IMG/VR virus record: IMGVR_UViG_3300028388_003891 | Span: 5,513 to 69,512 of that record | DNA length: 64,000 nucleotides | Origin: a virus | Lineage: Duplodnaviria > Heunggongvirae > Uroviricota > Caudoviricetes | Direction: 5' to 3' (one strand) | Shown here: piece after piece, positions 25,355 to 57,915 of the stretch | Numbering within the stretch: position 1 is the stretch's first letter | How the letters are laid out: every line of letters begins with the position of its first letter | Position numbers and translations under genes: made by a program | The notes under the pieces: generated by a model | Databases searched by the model: none | What the model saw: only the letters and a program-made list of their open reading frames with translations | What the model was told of the DNA's origin: nothing

Positions 25355-25660
25355 ATGAATTTTTACAAACCCTTCACGGGACAAATTGTAGTATTGATGA
25401 CACCGATTGGCGAAATCGTTGGGCGATTTAAGACGGGGTCTGAGAACTGGGTCGAGCTAAAGGATCCGCGACTGTTCTTTGCATCAGGAGAGGGTCAAGG
25501 TGGTTTTACACCAGGGGTTTCACAAATCGGTGTTAGTGAACCAGATTCCTCACCTTTTTCTACTAGCCAGATCATCACCATCCAGATTGCACGAGATGAG
25601 GTTGCGCAAGCGTGGCAACAAGTAACAACTGGTTTGGTGGTACCGCAAGGAGCGTTGTAA
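25355..25660 (+). CDS. Hypothetical protein
   Basis: 101 aa, inside the deazaguanine cluster. No recognisable family. Confidence 0.3.
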   Translation: MNFYKPFTGQIVVLMTPIGEIVGRFKTGSENWVELKDPRLFFASGEGQGGFTPGVSQIGVSEPDSSPFSTSQIITIQIARDEVAQAWQQVTTGLVVPQGAL

Positions 25661-26154
25661 TGCAACCTGTATCATACAAATTCGTGAGCACTAAAGAATA
25701 TATCGATGCCTTTCCTTGTGCCTATAGACAACACCGTGCCGACTCTCACTGTAATCTGATACACGGATATAGCTTTTCAATGAAGTTCTGGTTTGGCAGT
25801 GATGACCTTGATGTGCGCAATTGGGTAGCAGATTATGGCGGCCTTAAAGAGCTGAAAACCGTTTTACAGGAACAGTTCGATCACACTCTCCTCGTTGCGG
25901 AGGACGATCCTAAGATCCAAGTGTTCAAATTGCTCGAGCAACGCAATCTTGCACGGTTAACAATTCTACCTCGCCTTGGATGTGAAGGGCTAGCAGACAT
26001 GCTGTATAAATATGTGAACGGCGTCTACATCCCTGATTACTGGGGTCCTTCCGAAGCAGAGCGACTGTGGTGTTTTCGTGTTGAGGTACGGGAAACGCAA
26101 AGCAACATGGCCTACCGTGAAGGGCATCGCGAATGGAATGAAGAGCTGTTCTAA
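25612..26154 (+). CDS. QueD-like 6-carboxytetrahydropterin synthase (T-fold)
   Basis: 'HCNLIHGYSF' parallels the QueD zinc motif 'CGRLHGHSF' (HGH is HGY here), with a histidine cluster upstream. Confidence 0.55.
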   Translation: MATSNNWFGGTARSVVMQPVSYKFVSTKEYIDAFPCAYRQHRADSHCNLIHGYSFSMKFWFGSDDLDVRNWVADYGGLKELKTVLQEQFDHTLLVAEDDPKIQVFKLLEQRNLARLTILPRLGCEGLADMLYKYVNGVYIPDYWGPSEAERLWCFRVEVRETQSNMAYREGHREWNEELF

Positions 26155-26265
26155 ACAACGAGTTTTCTATCTGTTGTTCCACGCAATGTGGGTTTTAGAT
26201 AGCCAAGGTACAGTCCGCCCTTGCTTCTTTCTACGGACGTTAAGCTAAACCCGAAAGGAGATTAC

Positions 26266-26934
26266 ATGTCTAAATCAAATCCCGACCTCGGTCGGCAAGT
26301 AAACGAGCACCTCGTGCAACTTGGAATTCATACCCCCGTTACCGATATGGTGATGGAAGATCGTGAAACCAAAATTGCAAAGGTCGCAGAACTCACTAGA
26401 GAAATGTTGGAGGTACTTGGTCTCGATCTCTCAGACGACAGCTTGGAAGAAACTCCAATGCGCGTTGCGAAGATGTACGTCGATGAGACTTTTGCCGGTC
26501 TTCGTTATGATACTTTTCCTAAATGCACCACAGTAGAAAACAAGTTCTGCCACGGTGATGAATTTGTCCTCGAGAAGAACATAACGCTATACAGCGACTG
26601 CGAACATCACCTTCGTCCTATTATTGGCAAAGCGCACATTGCGTACATACCAAAGGATAAAGTGATGGGGCTGTCAAAGTTGAATCGCATCACACAATAC
26701 TTCGCCAGGCGCCCGCAAGTGCAAGAGCGTCTTAATCAGCAAATTGCTCACTCAATCGCATTCATCACTGAAAGTGAAGATGTGATGGTAGTGATCGAAG
26801 CTGAACACACCTGTGTGTCCCAACGCGGTATTAAAGACACTTCAAGCTCAACTGTCACGGCTTGTTGCCTTGGTCAGTTTGGCATTCACAACAGCGAGCT
26901 GCGTAAAGAGGTTATGGCCAATATCAATAGGTAA
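26266..26934 (+). CDS. folE: GTP cyclohydrolase I (FolE)
   Basis: Conserved 'CEHHLRPI', 'GLSKLNRI' and 'QVQERLN' blocks. RBS AAAGGAG before ATG 26266. The ORF-track start at 26221 is an extension. Confidence 0.8.
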   Translation: MSKSNPDLGRQVNEHLVQLGIHTPVTDMVMEDRETKIAKVAELTREMLEVLGLDLSDDSLEETPMRVAKMYVDETFAGLRYDTFPKCTTVENKFCHGDEFVLEKNITLYSDCEHHLRPIIGKAHIAYIPKDKVMGLSKLNRITQYFARRPQVQERLNQQIAHSIAFITESEDVMVVIEAEHTCVSQRGIKDTSSSTVTACCLGQFGIHNSELRKEVMANINR

Positions 26935-28947: not shown

Positions 28948-29468
28948 TGAGTCTGCGTAATATAGCCCTTTCCACCAATCCAGCAGAGTTGTCTCATACT
29001 GAAGAGGATGATGTTCAGCCAAATGCTGTCGACATACGTCTCGATAAAGTGTGGCAAATTTCCAACGAGACGTTTACCCTCAGTGATAGTCACAAGGGGC
29101 ATCGTGGGTCCGAAGAGCTGTCGTTTACCCGTCATTTCCCCGACCATGAAGGCGAATGGATCGATCTATATCCAGGCAGCTATGAGTTTACCGCTAGAGG
29201 TACTGTGCTAGTTCCGCCTGGGTTCGCTGGGTGGGTAGTTACTCGAAGCACACTGAACCGTAATGGTGTCTTCATAACATCCGGCCTGTACGATAGCGGC
29301 TATCATGGAGTAATGGCCGGCGTAATACATGTATCTTGCGGTCCCTTTCTGGTTCAGCGAGGAACACGCATTGGTCAGTTTATACTTGTCGACGCTGAAA
29401 CATCTCATCAGTACGATGGCGATTACGGTTTGGGTAAAAAGCACGATGATAAGTACACGACTGCGTAG
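28947..29468 (+). CDS. dCTP deaminase / dUTPase-fold protein
   Basis: 'QPNAVDIRLD', 'VPPGFAGWVVTRSTLNRNGV', 'SGLYDSGYHG' and 'RIGQFIL' blocks characteristic of the Dcd/Dut beta-barrel. Its TAG stop (29466-29468) lies inside the following tRNA. Confidence 0.6.
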   Translation: MSLRNIALSTNPAELSHTEEDDVQPNAVDIRLDKVWQISNETFTLSDSHKGHRGSEELSFTRHFPDHEGEWIDLYPGSYEFTARGTVLVPPGFAGWVVTRSTLNRNGVFITSGLYDSGYHGVMAGVIHVSCGPFLVQRGTRIGQFILVDAETSHQYDGDYGLGKKHDDKYTTA

Positions 29469-29535
29469 CACAATCTGGTAGTGCGCTGAACTCTAAATTC
29501 ATGAGATAACGGTTCAAATCCGTTCGCAGTCACCA
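29459..29535 (+). tRNA. tRNA with anticodon CUA (amber-suppressor-like), CCA encoded
   Basis: Acceptor GACUGCG/CGCAGUC, D arm GCAC-AAUCUGGUA-GUGC, anticodon arm CUGAA-CUCUAAA-UUCAU (C27.U43 mismatch), T arm AACGG-UUCAAAU-CCGUU, A73-CCA. Confidence 0.5.
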
Positions 29536-31089: not shown

Positions 31090-31457
31090 TTGCATTTGCT
31101 GGTGGGGCGTTCCATTAACGAAATTCGATGAAGCACAACGAACGGTGCTAAGGACGGGGGTTCGATTCCCCCCACCTCCACCAAAAAGCATACTCTTCCC
31201 GCGAAAGCGGTGCGATGGAAGTCGTCATAATCAACCAAGGGAGTATGCTTTTTGATGGGGGTGCACTGGCTTCGACTTGGACTTAATAGCTTGTGTGGAG
31301 AATAGGTGCGGAAGCTACCTTAAACGCAACAAAGTAAAAAAGTGACGCAGCTAATGATGCTGTGTATGATGTGGCTCTAGCAGCCTGATCATACTGGGGA
31401 TTGACTATCCTTATTATCCAATAAGTCCGGGCAGGTTAAACCTGCCCGTTTTAGTTT
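31090..31457 (+). ncRNA. ssrA: Two-piece (circularly permuted) tmRNA gene: acceptor piece first, coding piece second
   Basis: Acceptor piece ends ...GGACGGGGGUUCGAUUCCCCC-CACCUCC-A-CCA at 31174. The coding piece starts at 31257 with GGGGGUG, which pairs with CACCUCC. The coding-piece head GGGGGUGCACUGGCUUCGAC resembles the tmRNA 5' head GGGGCUGAUUCUGGAUUCGAC. An in-frame tag ORF GCA GCU AAU GAU GCU GUG UAU GAU GUG GCU CUA GCA GCC UGA (31348-31388) encodes AANDAVYDVALAA. The 82-nt intervening segment forms a 13-bp hairpin. Terminator at 31427-31456. Confidence 0.75.
31427..31456 (+). terminator. Rho-independent terminator closing the tmRNA coding piece
   Basis: CCGGGCAGG-TTAAA-CCTGCCCG hairpin followed by a TTTTAGTTTT run. 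Confidence 0.65.
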
Positions 31458-49957: not shown

Positions 49958-50112
49958 TTTTCGATTGCCTGGTTGATAAACGACACTAACGGACTATATA
50001 CTATCACTATGTTGACGAATTTACATACAACAATACTCCCCCAAAGTAATCGCCCACTGATTGGCGGTTGGGGATCGTATTGTGTGGCGTTTGAGCGCAA
50101 AGATCCCAACAT

Positions 50113-50170
50113 AGTCCCCCTGATGAGTCTTATCGGAGACGAAACGCAAAGCTAAAGTAGCGTCGGGGAA
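50113..50170 (+). ncRNA. Hammerhead ribozyme 1 (type I, open stem I); predicted cleavage between 50164 and 50165
   Basis: GUCCCC-CUGAUGA-GUCU[UAUCGG]AGAC-GAAA-CGC[AAAGCUAAAGUA]GCG-UC^GGGGA. All core nucleotides are present (C3-A9, G12-A14, A15.1-U16.1, C17). Confidence 0.7.
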
Positions 50171-50275
50171 GAGAGAAGAAAATCTTCCCCCAGCTACCAC
50201 GAACTGTGAGCGTGGGAATCGCGGAGGGCAACAAGTCTCTTGTGACGGAAACCGATGCGACTTATCACAAATTAA

Positions 50276-50361
50276 CGCGGGATATACAAGCGGTCAACGT
50301 GATAGGGCTCATAACCCTATACCTTAGTGTTTCGTGGGTTCGAATCCCACTCCCGCAACCA
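50276..50361 (+). tRNA. tRNA-fMet-like (anticodon CAU), initiator features, unusual 14-nt variable region
   Basis: C1.A72 mismatch (CGCGGGA/UCCCGCA), anticodon stem with three G-C pairs (UAGGG-CUCAUAA-CCCUA), T arm GUGGG-UUCGAAU-CCCAC, A73-CCA. Confidence 0.55.
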
Positions 50362-50991
50362 AATTAACAGGCTGCCTTTCACATAGCCTGTTTTGACCGG
50401 CCCCTGTTTTTCCTCCTCCTTTTCGCAGGGGCCGGTCACCCTCTCCCCCGTTGCCCTCAATCTGACATTAAGAGATAATGTCTATGTTGAATTGAGGAGG
50501 CACCAATGAGCAAATACATTGTTTTCCAAATCGAAGTGACCCGCGCCATGGCCGACAAGATCGAGGTGTGATCGACATCAGAGAGTCGATAATGCCGACC
50601 CACGTCACACTGGCGATTGAAGACGGCCGCCTGATGGTCGTCGACGGCAGTGGGTATGACTTCATCATTGAGGAAGAAGATGAAACACAATCCAGTAGCT
50701 AAACACGCACACAAGTTCAACAAATGCGCCAAGCATGTTGACCGTAAGGCGCGTTCTAAGCGAGGATATCGCAAACACAGGAGAATTGATAATGGGTGTT
50801 GAGAACACAAATGTGGATACCAAAGAGCTCATGGTCGAGATTGATCTTGAACTTGGATCACTTGCGGCGCGGATCGCAACCGGCCTAACGTACAGCGAAA
50901 TCGTCGCGTTCGTTGAAATGATTGATAGCGAGGTATCCGACACCGAGTTTACGGACCAACTGATTAACGCCGTCCTACGCCTCAATGATTA

Positions 50992-51045
50992 ACTGCCCTG
51001 ATGAGTCTTACAGGAGACGAAACGCGCTGATAGCGCGTCGGCAGA
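50992..51045 (+). ncRNA. Hammerhead ribozyme 2 (type I); cleaves between 51039 and 51040, exactly at the tRNA-Tyr 5' end
   Basis: AACUGCC-CUGAUGA-GUCU[UACAGG]AGAC-GAAA-CGCGC[UGAUA]GCGCG-UC^GGCAGAG. Stem I is formed by the upstream CUGCC and the tRNA 5' acceptor strand GGCAG. Confidence 0.75.
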
Positions 51046-51121
51046 GTACACCCGTAACTGGTAGCGGCCCGCACTGTAACTGCGCATAACGTTGGGGGTT
51101 CGAATCCCTCCTCTGCCACCA
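51040..51121 (+). tRNA. tRNA (anticodon GUA, Tyr-type) with short variable region
   Basis: Acceptor GGCAGAG/CUCUGCC-A-CCA, anticodon arm (C)CGCA-CUGUAAC-UGCG(C), T arm GGGGG-UUCGAAU-CCCUC. D arm poorly paired. Confidence 0.55.
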
Positions 51122-51136
51122 AATTGAAAGGAGTTT

Positions 51137-51499
51137 GTGATGAATAAACGCTTCACGATTATCGCTGCGATAGTGATAGGCATCGGTAGTTTGTTTACTC
51201 TTTACGAAGGGGTCAAAGCTATCCGGCAGTATGCGTGGAACCATGAGGTTGTTGACGCTCGTCCCGTCGGTCCCGTTCGCACTGAGCAACGATTGATCGA
51301 ATGTGAGTATACAGGAATATGCTCTCGCTTTGATCCGCTGAACGGCGAGATGAGAACGGGGTTATCATCCTTTTGTCGCGGTCACCGTCCGGTCGTTGCT
51401 CGCATACAAGATGTGCAAGAGACGCTTCGTAACGGCGAGCAACGAATTCGAGAAGAGATAATGAGTCGCACAATCGTCGAGGGCGTAGCATGCAGATGA
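51137..51499 (+). CDS. Hypothetical membrane-anchored protein
   Basis: 120 aa with N-terminal TM helix. RBS AAAGGAG. Confidence 0.35.
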   Translation: MMNKRFTIIAAIVIGIGSLFTLYEGVKAIRQYAWNHEVVDARPVGPVRTEQRLIECEYTGICSRFDPLNGEMRTGLSSFCRGHRPVVARIQDVQETLRNGEQRIREEIMSRTIVEGVACR

Positions 51500-53101: not shown

Positions 53102-53470
53102 TTGCATCAAGGATGCTGCAAAGGCGTTGATCGCGAATGCTACCTAATGGCAGCAGACAATCCAGACTACGACATAACGATTTACTCGTACCCACCAATT
53201 AATGATCACTATGCGATCAAGTGCCTCGGTCATGTCAATTACAAGCCACAGCCGTTCCTTGTACGCGATCGTGCTCTGGTAGATGCGGCGGATATTCTGC
53301 TATCGATGCCACTTACTGATTACGAGACATTTCGCAGTGGTACATGGTACACTACACGCTATGCTCTGCAGCAGGACAAGCCTGTCGTACTGATTCAACC
53401 TAACGGCACTAGTGTGCCTGCTGATGAAATTGAGAGATACTTACTACCTGGAAAATGGGGTGAAAGGTAA
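53102..53470 (+). CDS. Hypothetical protein (nucleoside 2-deoxyribosyltransferase-like fold?)
   Basis: 'ALVDAADILLSMP...TWYTTRYALQQDKPVVLI'. Weak call. Confidence 0.25.
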   Translation: MHQGCCKGVDRECYLMAADNPDYDITIYSYPPINDHYAIKCLGHVNYKPQPFLVRDRALVDAADILLSMPLTDYETFRSGTWYTTRYALQQDKPVVLIQPNGTSVPADEIERYLLPGKWGER

Positions 53471-54435
53471 TGGAATTCATCAAATACAGCTCGATTGAGA
53501 ATCACTACCGTGAGAAGGTTGTCGACTGGTATCGTGAAAATGGATTAGAAAACGTCGGATGGATCTTGACGGAGAAGATCCATGGCGCTAACTTTTCTTT
53601 CTGGTGCAACAGCAGCGAAGTCAAGGTCGCATCTCGTAACCAATGGGTCGACAGCACATTCTATAGCTGTCAGGACATCATCGACGCGTACACGCCCGTT
53701 GTGCTAGAGCTCGCTACTTTCTTCCCCAACAGCACTGTAGCTGTGTATGGGGAGCTGTACGGACCCGGTATTCAGAAGGGGGTCAATTACGGCGACAAAA
53801 AAGATTTCGTTGCCTTCGACATTCGAGTTGACGGATACTTCCTAGATCGTAATAAAGTACATGTGTACATCGCTGGTGCAAACCAGCTGACATTACAAAA
53901 GCACGGTCAGAGGTCCACCTTGATGGACGTTGTCCCTATTGTTGGCTCGACAGTGTCACTAACACAAGTGCTTGAGTTTGATAACGAGTTTGTATCTGTG
54001 CTTGGCCGTCTCAATGGTGTCGACGACGATGCCAACCTTGCTGAGGGATTCATTGCAACGCCAGTCGGCAAAGCGTACCAACGCATTGGCAGCGACCGTG
54101 TGATCCTCAAATCGAAAGGTGAAAAGTGGACAGAGAAAAGCAAGAAGGTAAAGACGCCTCGTGCTCCTGTTACTGAGCACCCACTGACATCAACGGTTGA
54201 GCAGTATGTCAACACCAACCGTGTCGATGCTGTCACAAGTAAGATGGGCCCGTTGACTCCAAAGGACTTTGGTCGGATCATTAGGGCTGTTTGTGATGAT
54301 GTCATTGATGACATGGTGAAGGACGGTGATGTTCGTAGCTGCTGGCGCGATGACGAAGAGACGAAAGACCTTGGCAAGGTTGTTAACAAAGTGGTAGTGC
54401 CTTTCCTCAAGAAAGAGCTGCTACCGACGTTGTAA
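53470..54435 (+). CDS. RNA ligase, Rnl2 family
   Basis: Nucleotidyltransferase motif I 'TEKIHGANF' (compare T4 Rnl2 'EKIHGTNF'). 321 aa. Embedded in the tRNA/ribozyme array. Confidence 0.65.
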   Translation: MEFIKYSSIENHYREKVVDWYRENGLENVGWILTEKIHGANFSFWCNSSEVKVASRNQWVDSTFYSCQDIIDAYTPVVLELATFFPNSTVAVYGELYGPGIQKGVNYGDKKDFVAFDIRVDGYFLDRNKVHVYIAGANQLTLQKHGQRSTLMDVVPIVGSTVSLTQVLEFDNEFVSVLGRLNGVDDDANLAEGFIATPVGKAYQRIGSDRVILKSKGEKWTEKSKKVKTPRAPVTEHPLTSTVEQYVNTNRVDAVTSKMGPLTPKDFGRIIRAVCDDVIDDMVKDGDVRSCWRDDEETKDLGKVVNKVVVPFLKKELLPTL

Positions 54436-56084: not shown

Positions 56085-56245
56085 TACAACACCGGTTAGT
56101 GATACGAGTAACGATTAAGTTACAGTTGTGGAGCGGTACTATTAGGAATGGCTACAGCATCTAATTACTACGCAGCCAAAGAAAGCCATTCCGTAACAAT
56201 TAAGAGTGTTTGCAGCAACTAATCTTCCATGCTAAGGACGAGGCC

Positions 56246-56302
56246 GCAGGTTCGAATCCTGCTCCCCGCCATCGACGGTGGGGGTAGCTCAGCGGTAGAG
56301 CG
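56246..56302 (+). other. tRNA half-fragments: T arm plus 3' acceptor (CCUGC-UCCCCGC-C) followed 7 nt later by a tRNA 5' half (GGUGGGGG-UA-GCUC-AGCGGUA-GAGC-GC)
   Basis: The 3' strand UCCCCGC(C) upstream pairs perfectly with GGUGGGG downstream, a permuted or fragmented arrangement. The 5' half resembles tRNA-Ala. Confidence 0.3.
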
Positions 56303-56328
56303 CGTAGAAATACACTCTGTTTATTTTT

Positions 56329-57821: not shown

Positions 57822-57915
57822 GGAAGGTAATGCAGTGCCGATGGTGGCGCGACTGGCCTTGAAAACCAGGTCCCGGCTAAAACCGGGTGGGGTTCGACTC
57901 CTCTGCCTTCCGCCA
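57822..57915 (+). tRNA. tRNA-Ser (UGA), class II with long variable arm
   Basis: Acceptor GGAAGGU/GCCUUCC, anticodon arm CUGG(C)-CUUGAAA-(A)CCAG, variable arm CCCGG-CUAAAA-CCGGG, T loop UUCGACU, G73-CCA. Confidence 0.7.

Follow-up and report, generated by a model that had tools for sequence, protein, structure and literature searches.

The subject of this work is a junction between a hammerhead ribozyme and a transfer RNA (tRNA) gene in a 64 kb stretch of DNA (IMG/VR record IMGVR_UViG_3300028388_003891; 47.8% G+C), referred to here as the window, whose source is a divergent T4-like phage. On the + strand of the window, a type I hammerhead, HHR2 (50993-51044), runs into a gene for tRNA-Tyr with the anticodon GUA (51040-51121), in such a way that the 3' strand of stem I of the ribozyme is made of the first five nucleotides (nt) of the tRNA, and that the predicted scissile bond, between 51039 and 51040, is the exact +1 position of the tRNA. 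Similar junctions recur in other viral sequences, their base pairs covary, and the comparison points to hammerhead-tRNA-Tyr as a conserved, selected arrangement. RNase P is considered to make tRNA 5' ends almost universally. HHR2, in turn, is probably an active ribozyme which acts in cis on the nascent transcript, releasing a leaderless tRNA-Tyr with a 5'-hydroxyl (5'-OH) and ending the upstream messenger RNA (mRNA). If true, this would represent an RNase P-independent route to a mature tRNA, by means of a cis hammerhead that uses the tRNA acceptor strand.

HHR2 was recognised from its sequence, its Rfam alignment, a dedicated covariance model (R1), its predicted fold and its covariation. Read from 5' to 3' on the + strand, it is composed of the 5' strand of stem I (CUGCC, 50993-50997), the core positions C3-A9 (CUGAUGA, 50998-51004), stem II (GUCUU/GAGAC, 51005-51009 and 51014-51018, with the loop ACAG), the core positions G12-A15.1 (GAAA, 51019-51022, with GAA at 51019-51021), stem III (CGCGCU/AGCGCG, 51023-51028 and 51032-51037, with the loop GAU), U16.1 (51038), C17 (51039) and the 3' strand of stem I (GGCAG, 51040-51044), which is tRNA nt 1-5. 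The three helices have 5, 5 and 7 pairs, stems II and III being capped by loops and stem I being open. The cleavage triplet GUC (51037-51039) follows the N-U-H rule, in which H is not G, and the core C3 U4 G5 A6 N7 G8 A9 ... G12 A13 A14 is complete, with only N7 varying across the 19 homologues; the closing pairs G10.1-C11.1 and A15.1-U16.1 are also present, and are invariant in 19/19 sequences. The original prediction had proposed a complete catalytic core, the stems II and III, the GUC triplet, a stem I built from the upstream CUGCC and the GGCAG of the tRNA, and a cut after C51039 at the exact 5' end of the tRNA. All these elements are found in the sequence, and the anatomy fits such a cut; stem II, given there as GUCU/AGAC, is in fact longer by one U.G pair.

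The Rfam model Hammerhead_1 (RF00163) aligns with 50993-51044 from end to end at 18.3 bits. When a permissive type I descriptor was run on both strands, with 200 dinucleotide-preserving shuffles as control, exactly two matches were obtained in the window, HHR2 and a second hammerhead upstream, HHR1, as against a mean of 0.045 per shuffle; at least one site was present in 8 of the 200 shuffles and two or more in only 1. Moreover, the covariance model R1, built from an alignment (A1) of the tRNA-linked hammerheads (19 sequences, HHR2 included), gave 70.1 bits for HHR2 and 70.0 bits for HHR1 (E = 1.6e-17), which lies outside the training set, and had no other match in the window. The junctions which did not form part of the training set (L230, L234, L188 and L235) scored 51-78 bits with the same model. 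As regards folding, the minimum-energy structure of the nascent RNAs 50986-51046 and 50986-51075 is the hammerhead three-way junction, with -21.1 kcal/mol and z = -2.94 for the 61-mer 50986-51046, and in the minimum-energy fold of the full 141-nt RNA the segment GGCAGAG pairs with the 3' acceptor strand, replacing stem I. Since stem I and the acceptor stem cannot coexist, they would form in that order during transcription.

Exact-match pattern scans were carried out on IMG/VR, GTDB genomes and JGI metagenomes, combining pieces of the hammerhead core with a T-loop at tRNA distance and leaving the anticodon unspecified in all patterns; the hits were then passed through a script which accepted a type I hammerhead cut site followed directly by a 7-bp acceptor stem closing on a T-arm. 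In most patterns the length of stem-loop II was fixed at 14 nt and the T-loop was canonical, and other ribozyme subfamilies or tRNAs could escape them. At least 19 unique hammerhead-tRNA junctions, the window included, were obtained from more than 15 metagenomes and, among the matches listed, the predicted cut falls exactly before tRNA +1 and the anticodon is GUA in every one of them. The original prediction had raised the question of whether such junctions recur in relatives, and these scans answer it in the affirmative; the specificity for tRNA-Tyr goes beyond that prediction, as do the linkage to the DUF7230 family and the membership of HHR1 in the same ribozyme subfamily, both described below. 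Inspection by eye of the rejected hits added two degenerate copies, L188 and L230, and the junctions L234 and L235 were found via a neighbouring protein.

The junctions are located inside large phage tRNA arrays, with up to ~25 tRNA genes per fetched stretch, where the ribozyme is present only at tRNA-Tyr. In fact, a hammerhead-like core ending at -1 was found at 13/27 of the tRNA-Tyr genes called by ARAGORN in the fetched loci, compared with 4/448 matches to a loose regular expression for the other tRNAs of these loci (Fisher p = 5e-15), and none of these four had hammerhead stems on inspection. Wherever flanking genes are available, the junction contigs look T4-like from their gene content (L225 encodes portal, protease and gp23 at 55% identity to the window, and L188 encodes gp46/47 homologues); one junction contig is very large. 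The arrangement had been suspected of being no standard feature of cultured T4-like phages and, in agreement with this, blastn of the window segment 50000-51500 and of two related hammerhead-tRNA modules against 50,697 phage records returned nothing relevant. The GTDB scan gave 12 pattern hits and 0 real hammerheads; several of these hits fall on a sequence, CUGAAGAG...CGAAA, that is conserved ahead of tRNA-Met in Gallionella and Nitrosomonadales and was discarded since it forms no real hammerhead.

Two of the loci show variations on the unit. In L078 (6478-6756; also L213 and L221), a viral contig of 347-410 kb has a tandem of two hammerhead-tRNA-Tyr units, which are separated by 20 nt and differ in their stem I and acceptor sequences, and cuts at both sites would free the first tRNA and the second ribozyme as a ~150-nt unit. 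In L230 (~963-1110), the hammerhead is intact (78.5 bits with R1) and the acceptor stem of the tRNA is degenerate; its anticodon stem-loop is the exact reverse complement of that of L172 (CCAGA-UUUACAG-UCUGG vs CCAGA-CUGUAAA-UCUG), and it is a hairpin inversion inside a tRNA gene.

Covariation was assessed on A1, a MAFFT alignment of the 19 ribozymes together with the first 7 tRNA nucleotides. Over the 16 pairs of the hammerhead structure, 98.3% of the cells are paired, with compensatory double changes at 12 of the 16, and the covariation score reaches 0.578 against 0.199 ± 0.021 in shuffled alignments, the observed value being attained in 0 of 500 shuffles; when the 3' partners were slid by 1-3 columns as a control, pairing was 33-52%. 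In stem I, where the upstream strand faces tRNA nt 1-5, all of the cells are paired (95/95), with double changes at 4 of the 5 pairs and with U-A, G-C, C-G or A-U at position 3. The same tRNA nucleotides covary also with the 3' acceptor strand, and the upstream strand of stem I follows the 3' acceptor strand. Across the homologues, the sequence of stem III is free to vary, as is its length (10-24 nt), with its pairing kept, U, C or A occurs at N7, and the cleavage triplet can be GUC, GUA, GUU or AUA; none of this variation departs from the activity rules known for the hammerhead.

The tRNA gene linked to HHR2, with its anticodon at 51076-51078 and an encoded CCA at 51119-51121, was called by Rfam (RF00005, 51040-51118) at 40.4 bits, the gathering score being 29, and it is the single tRNA-Tyr found in the window. 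It has a cloverleaf with a T-loop, the discriminator A73 and the CCA end, and is assigned to tyrosine by its GUA anticodon. ARAGORN made no call for the window gene at 51040-51121, and called the homologues as tRNA-Tyr; the cloverleaf itself shows compensatory changes at 12/20 pairs, in all four stems (8 homologues, alignment A2). Bacterial tRNA-Tyr normally has a long variable arm. The ribozyme-linked genes are of two types, one of 77-79 nt, which includes the window copy and combines a short variable region with a 3-nt insert ahead of the D stem, and another of 82-87 nt with a long variable arm able to form a stem. In the window copy, the 3-nt insert is placed between A9 and the D stem and the variable region has ~8 nt, so the class II long variable arm of the bacterial type is absent; in this shorter type, five nucleotides instead of two separate the acceptor and D stems (51047-51052 in the window, and the homologues in A2).

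A conserved A-R dinucleotide precedes stem I in alignment A1. In the window it is formed by the last two bases of a TAA codon (50991-50992, + strand), opposite the near-invariant A6-G7 of tRNA-Tyr, and it may lengthen stem I or take part in a tertiary contact. In A1, conservation among the ribozyme-linked genes is at least 90% at the A at -7 and at tRNA nucleotides A6 and G7, while UG, AG, GA, GG or UU occupies positions 6-7 in the 14 tRNA-Tyr genes that have no hammerhead; the fact that A6-G7 is conserved only in ribozyme-linked tRNAs indicates that the ribozyme constrains the tRNA sequence. Matching AG ... AG flanks are found in HHR1. That such A-R ... A-G flanks are a general trait of phage type I hammerheads was considered and rejected, the wider GUCU...AGAC set being A-rich and lacking the motif, in a comparison with few non-tRNA members of the 14-nt stem-loop II subfamily. 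No partner could be assigned to the conserved positions that are unpaired or flanking, which comprise A6-G7, the A at -7 and, in stem-loop II, the first A of the loop and the U.G pair that closes it. A pairing between UUACAG at loop II and CUGUAA in the anticodon loop, present in the window, is not conserved in the homologues and was attributed to chance.

In the mechanism favoured here, the first five to seven nucleotides of tRNA-Tyr would, once transcribed, pair with the upstream CUGCC and close stem I, the three-way junction would form, and the ribozyme would cut after C51039. Two products would result: an upstream mRNA with the two hairpins of the ribozyme at its 3' end, terminated by a 2',3'-cyclic phosphate, and a leaderless tRNA-Tyr starting at G51040 with a 5'-OH. 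With the synthesis of the 3' acceptor strand, ~70 nt later, the 7-bp acceptor stem would displace the 5-bp stem I and the tRNA would fold; since the acceptor stem would sequester the stem I strand, ligation would be prevented and the cut would be irreversible. With its 5' end made by the ribozyme, tRNA-Tyr would need no RNase P step. In addition, the ribozyme would mark the boundary between message and tRNA, the message usually being DUF7230 in the relatives and, in the window, the open reading frame (ORF) ending at 50992. Access of RNase P may even be hindered, because stem III is a stable hairpin that reaches to within 2 nt of the tRNA and a sequestered or structured 5' leader is known to block this enzyme (PMC7897497).

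Several points weigh against this mechanism. Support for cleavage, and hence for its kinetics, for the 5'-end chemistry in vivo and for independence from RNase P, comes from sequence comparison and folding, in the homologues as in the window, and only a short time would pass before the acceptor stem could form and compete. Furthermore, the tRNA-Tyr is still a formally valid substrate of RNase P, which could therefore make the same end, and about half of the tRNA-Tyr genes have no hammerhead, from which it follows that tRNA-Tyr as such needs none. The score of HHR2 is also below the gathering score of RF00163 (18.3 vs 34 bits), and so is that of HHR1, probably on account of the long stem III and the short stem I. 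A loop-loop tertiary contact was looked for in HHR2 and none was identified; as stem I has only 5 bp, cleavage could thus be slow at cellular Mg2+. Finally, the pairing at positions 1-3 of stem I is partly ascertained, because the junction finder demanded at least 3 consecutive stem I pairs. Stem I positions 4-5, and stems II and III beyond a minimum, were not demanded by the finder, and inspection of the hits it had rejected yielded just one more junction with a mismatch in stem I, L188.

The ribozyme-tRNA unit is embedded between protein-coding genes of one strand, as can be seen from the stop codon abutting HHR2 and from the ORF that begins 18 nt past the CCA. The upstream ORF (50792-50992, +) encodes 66 amino acids from the ATG at 50792, with a GGAG placed 8 nt ahead of it, or 85 from the ATG at 50735; it has no family match, and its TAA stop (50990-50992) lies directly against HHR2. 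The downstream ORF (51140-51499, +) has the ribosome-binding site AAGGAG at 51128-51133. Further upstream, a small basic ORF (50680-50802, +; MKHNPVAKHAHKFNKCAKHVDRKARSKRGYRKHRRIDNGC) belongs to DUF7230 (Pfam PF23876, phrog_1359), with 38.9 bits against a cut-off of 27 (E = 9.3e-10), and all 8 aligned homologues match the family as well. In the window, this ORF has its own normal stop, 190 nt upstream of HHR2, and overlaps the start of the intervening ORF. DUF7230 is the conserved small basic ORF (MKNNFVAKHANKFNTAKVFDNRKARAKRGYSKHK...) that is found upstream of other junctions, and Pfam and phrog_1359 give no known function for it.

In an all-against-all blastp of the flanking ORFs, no upstream ORF was common to all junctions. 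The conserved part of DUF7230 ends exactly at the start of stem I in 11 of the 19 unique junctions, and the other 8, the window included, are without DUF7230 directly upstream. At most of the abutting loci there is no stop before the ribozyme, and the frame crosses the hammerhead as ...S-L-P-D-E-S-Y-R-G-R-N..., usually stopping at the UAA in the tRNA-Tyr anticodon loop; such loci without a stop are L126, L161, L172, L176, L183 (9124-9318, for example), L202, L207, L212, L215 and L229, and the proteins concerned are P0001-P0033. In protein searches, the translated hammerhead (...LPDESYRGRN...) was present on 28 of 59 DUF7230 cluster representatives, a fraction which is biased upward because the first of the two protein queries held the extension. 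The remaining 31 representatives have 34-62 amino acids, those under ~45 stopping within a few residues of KHKG. As the translated ribozyme appears in these 28 as an apparent C-terminal extension, gene callers annotate ribozyme and tRNA as protein. Insertions and deletions at the joint between ORF and ribozyme are whole codons (KHKS-LPDE vs KHKNS-LPDE). In L234 the stop is the UGA of the CUGAUGA core, and in L235 stem I is immediately preceded by a UAG, just as it is by TAA in the window. Given that the window has its DUF7230 190 nt upstream, with another ORF between, the ancestral unit looks like DUF7230 - hammerhead - tRNA-Tyr, with an ORF inserted here. The DUF7230 linkage offers a historical account of the restriction to tRNA-Tyr, not of the retention of the unit. 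That DUF7230 is an ArfA-like rescue factor was considered and rejected, with an hhalign probability of 0.4%, no Pfam family other than DUF7230 and no PDB relative.

These data on DUF7230 bear on the main rival explanation, compatible with the favoured one, according to which the hammerhead is active and selection acts on the mRNA side, through definition or stabilisation of the 3' end or through a deliberately non-stop mRNA, the tRNA 5' end being a by-product. The abutment of DUF7230, usually without a prior stop, the representatives that end in a translated hammerhead and the whole-codon indels at the joint are in its favour, and phage hammerheads are known beside genes (PMC3088659). Nevertheless, a role on the mRNA side has no need for a cut at tRNA +1 in 19/19 junctions, nor for tRNA nucleotides in stem I; the stop that L234 has within the core, and that L235 and the window have immediately ahead of stem I, means that a non-stop message is not obligatory, and eight junctions are without DUF7230 directly upstream. 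This explanation is considered possible, though not probable. A further proposal, which is rather doubtful, would join both sides in a device coupling translation to tRNA supply, where the cut would at once free tRNA-Tyr and make the DUF7230 message non-stop, DUF7230 and tRNA-Tyr possibly being a functional pair, in counter-defence for instance, and the 5'-OH possibly marking or protecting the phage tRNA. The fate of the DUF7230 product would then hinge on ribosome rescue, the phage carrying its own transfer-messenger RNA (tmRNA), and a ribosome entering the ribozyme would unfold it, delaying the release of the tRNA. There is a precedent in defence, since a phage tRNA-Tyr neutralises the effector of Retron-Eco7, which depletes host tRNA-Tyr (PMC11555353). 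It seems less likely still that the hammerhead fold is a structural or regulatory switch, with slow or no cleavage in vivo, which holds the 5' acceptor strand and leaves RNase P to make the end. The mutual exclusion of stem I and acceptor stem, the minimal-looking architecture with its short stem I, and the fact that a ribosome terminating at or crossing the ribozyme would modulate folding could all be accommodated in such a switch, but a structural role would need neither the conservation of all 13 catalytic core positions nor a variation kept within the activity rules, and stem III varies in sequence with its pairing kept. As to chance resemblance, or a functionless decaying relic, the Rfam score under threshold and the existence of the degenerate copies L188 and L230 might suggest it; for practical purposes it is refuted by the shuffle expectation for the window and by the recurrence, with compensatory covariation, in 19 unique sequences.

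The last rival explanation concerns HHR1 (about 50113-50171, + strand), detected with Rfam and with R1, with a predicted cut after C50164. HHR1 scores 26.8 bits with Hammerhead_1, under the gathering score of 34, and it belongs to the same hammerhead subfamily as HHR2. Folding of the next 111 nt showed its 3' product to begin, in place of a tRNA, with a hairpin of 8 bp (50165-50190), which would compete with stem I by the same logic as the acceptor stem does in HHR2. The product reads GGGGAAGA-(10 nt)-UCUUCCCC, followed by CAGCUACCA (window to 50199), and the GGGGAAG / CUUCCCC of its hairpin is also the acceptor-stem sequence of the ribozyme-linked tRNA-Tyr in L203. HHR1 may be the relic of a second hammerhead-tRNA-Tyr unit whose tRNA body was lost, as the tandem of L078 would illustrate. 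Some 2.4 kb downstream of HHR2, an Rnl2-like gene (53470-54435; Pfam RNA_ligase and T4_Rnl2_C) is found. The original prediction had placed it about that far downstream, in the same array; the gene is real and lies where it was said to lie, while its connection with the ribozyme finds no support. Rnl2-type ligases join a 5'-phosphate to a 3'-OH, and the ends left by a hammerhead are a 5'-OH and a 2',3'-cyclic phosphate. No end-healing polynucleotide kinase was found among the scanned ORFs of the window, and no Rnl2 homologue in the available flanks of the other junction loci, so that a functional link was rejected both for the mismatch in end chemistry and for the lack of co-occurrence. These same observations count against the proposal that HHR1 and HHR2 together excise an 875-nt RNA (50165-51039) to be circularised or re-ligated by the phage RNA ligase. 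Two hammerheads of one subfamily, 875 nt apart on one strand and with the ligase gene nearby, as well as the tandem units of L078, may bring it to mind. However, apart from the chemistry and the missing kinase and homologues, the hairpins with U-runs that follow the tRNA at 50276-50361, where a terminator scan called none, and a promoter-like site at 50451-50479 hint at separate transcripts, and excision is judged very improbable.

With regard to known systems, a natural hammerhead at the 5' end of a tRNA was not described anywhere in the literature searched, which was mostly non-subscription full text, and a 2019 review of ribozyme biology mentions no hammerhead-tRNA 5' junction. As far as searched, therefore, the natural fusion of this known ribozyme with a known tRNA had not been described before. 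In the hammerhead survey of 2011 (Perreault et al., PMC3088659; RF00163), phage and prophage copies flank genes, with no tRNA junction. The hammerheads of the window share with those phage copies the core, the three-stem architecture and an intergenic position in a polycistronic transcript, a description which HHR1 fits too. They differ from them in the fixed 14-nt stem-loop II, the 5-bp stem I and the A-R/A-G flanks, and neither abutment to a tRNA nor a stem made with tRNA nucleotides was reported there. The favoured mechanism, if true, would provide a concrete role for hammerheads in DNA phages, which has been an open question since 2011.

Theta ribozymes (Kienbeck et al. 2024, PMC10879173) are minimal ribozymes of the hepatitis delta virus (HDV) type located beside tRNA genes of gut Caudoviricetes; in that work, 5' maturation is the task of RNase P and hammerheads are unmentioned. 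The two systems have in common a small self-cleaving ribozyme fused in cis to a phage tRNA, a proposed end maturation without host RNases, their discovery by bioinformatics in uncultured phages, and a bias to particular tRNAs. Theta ribozymes adopt the HDV fold and are placed on the 3' side of the tRNA, where they trim the trailer and leave a 2',3'-cyclic phosphate on the tRNA, and they are associated mainly with suppressor tRNAs of gut phages; here, in contrast, the fold is that of a hammerhead placed 5' of the tRNA, the predicted tRNA end is a 5'-OH, tRNA nucleotides are part of the ribozyme, and only tRNA-Tyr(GUA) in metagenomic viral contigs is concerned, among the matches listed. In line with this difference in fold, no member of the HDV family was matched when 50050-51150 was searched with Rfam at E values up to 10. 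Should the mechanism hold, HHR2 would be to the 5' end of a phage tRNA what theta ribozymes are to the 3' end. As regards RNase P, the phosphodiester involved, between tRNA -1 and +1, is the same. RNase P is a trans-acting ribonucleoprotein or protein which works by hydrolysis and leaves a 5'-phosphate, whereas the hammerhead would act in cis, in a single turnover, by transesterification and leaving a 5'-OH.

The same design is used by biochemists. Engineered hammerhead-tRNA cassettes for in vitro tRNA synthesis, called transzymes, were reportedly described by Fechter et al. in 1998. The 5'-OH tRNA obtained from transzymes is usable in aminoacylation and translation. In these cassettes, as in the window, an upstream hammerhead in cis has its stem I completed by the 5' acceptor strand of the tRNA, is cut at +1 and gives a 5'-OH tRNA; transzymes are man-made, and the arrangement described here appears to be a natural counterpart under purifying selection, so that nature would seem to share the biochemists' design. 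This hammerhead-tRNA approach to in vitro tRNA synthesis is also mentioned in PMC12228740. As for the stop-less DUF7230 frames, an analogy, and only an analogy, can be drawn with another small basic ORF whose message is cut in or at the end of the frame and whose product depends on rescue. This is arfA of E. coli, the mRNA of which is made non-stop by RNase III cleavage. DUF7230 differs from it in that there is no detected sequence relationship, in that a ribozyme takes the place of RNase III, and in that variants with stop codons exist. Taken as they are, the tRNA-Tyr restriction, the A6-G7 constraint and the fusion with a stop-less ORF raise questions on the interplay of ribosome and ribozyme and on why the phage tRNA-Tyr should be special.

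The window encodes the T4-like proteins gp18 (sheath), gp20 (portal), gp23 (capsid protein), UvsW and a gp46-like ATPase, together with a family B DNA polymerase, UvsX, DNA ligase and the Rnl2-like RNA ligase. Among the 50,697 phage records, its best capsid match is Phage C48C1 (Kyanoviridae, 64% identity), whose first 50 kb are syntenic with the window and contain just three isolated tRNA genes. The window itself has ~31 tRNA genes and a permuted tmRNA according to ARAGORN and Rfam, every one of them on the + strand. The tmRNA is of the two-piece type (31123-31388; Rfam tmRNA_permuted, 95.2 bits), with a tag peptide predicted by ARAGORN as DAANDAVYDVALAA. Far from the main tRNA array, a tRNA with the CUA anticodon of an amber suppressor is encoded at 29459-29535 (Rfam tRNA, 65.8 bits; labelled tRNA-Pyl by ARAGORN), and similar CUA tRNAs are present in some IMG/VR loci, such as L010 and L015.

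The gene at 50276-50361, 111 nt downstream of the HHR1 cut, is tRNA-Met(CAU) according to ARAGORN, and has a C1xA72 mismatch, an anticodon stem with three G-C pairs at its base and an unusual variable region of ~13 nt, being followed by two hairpins with U-runs. The mismatch and the three G-C pairs are hallmarks of bacterial initiator tRNA-fMet. Two tRNA-like matches under threshold, neither of them called by ARAGORN, are tRNA-Sec at 57822-57911 (41.1 bits, the gathering score being 47) and YrlA (Y RNA-like) at 56238-56306 (28.4 bits); these may be further non-canonical tRNAs or tRNA-like RNAs of the array. Finally, a QueD-like (PTPS) gene and a GTP cyclohydrolase I gene are adjacent at 25612-26934. 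These enzymes catalyse the first steps in the synthesis of 7-deazaguanines (preQ0/queuosine), and the recipients of queuosine include tRNA-Tyr(GUA); phages also use the 7-deazaguanine pathway for DNA modification.

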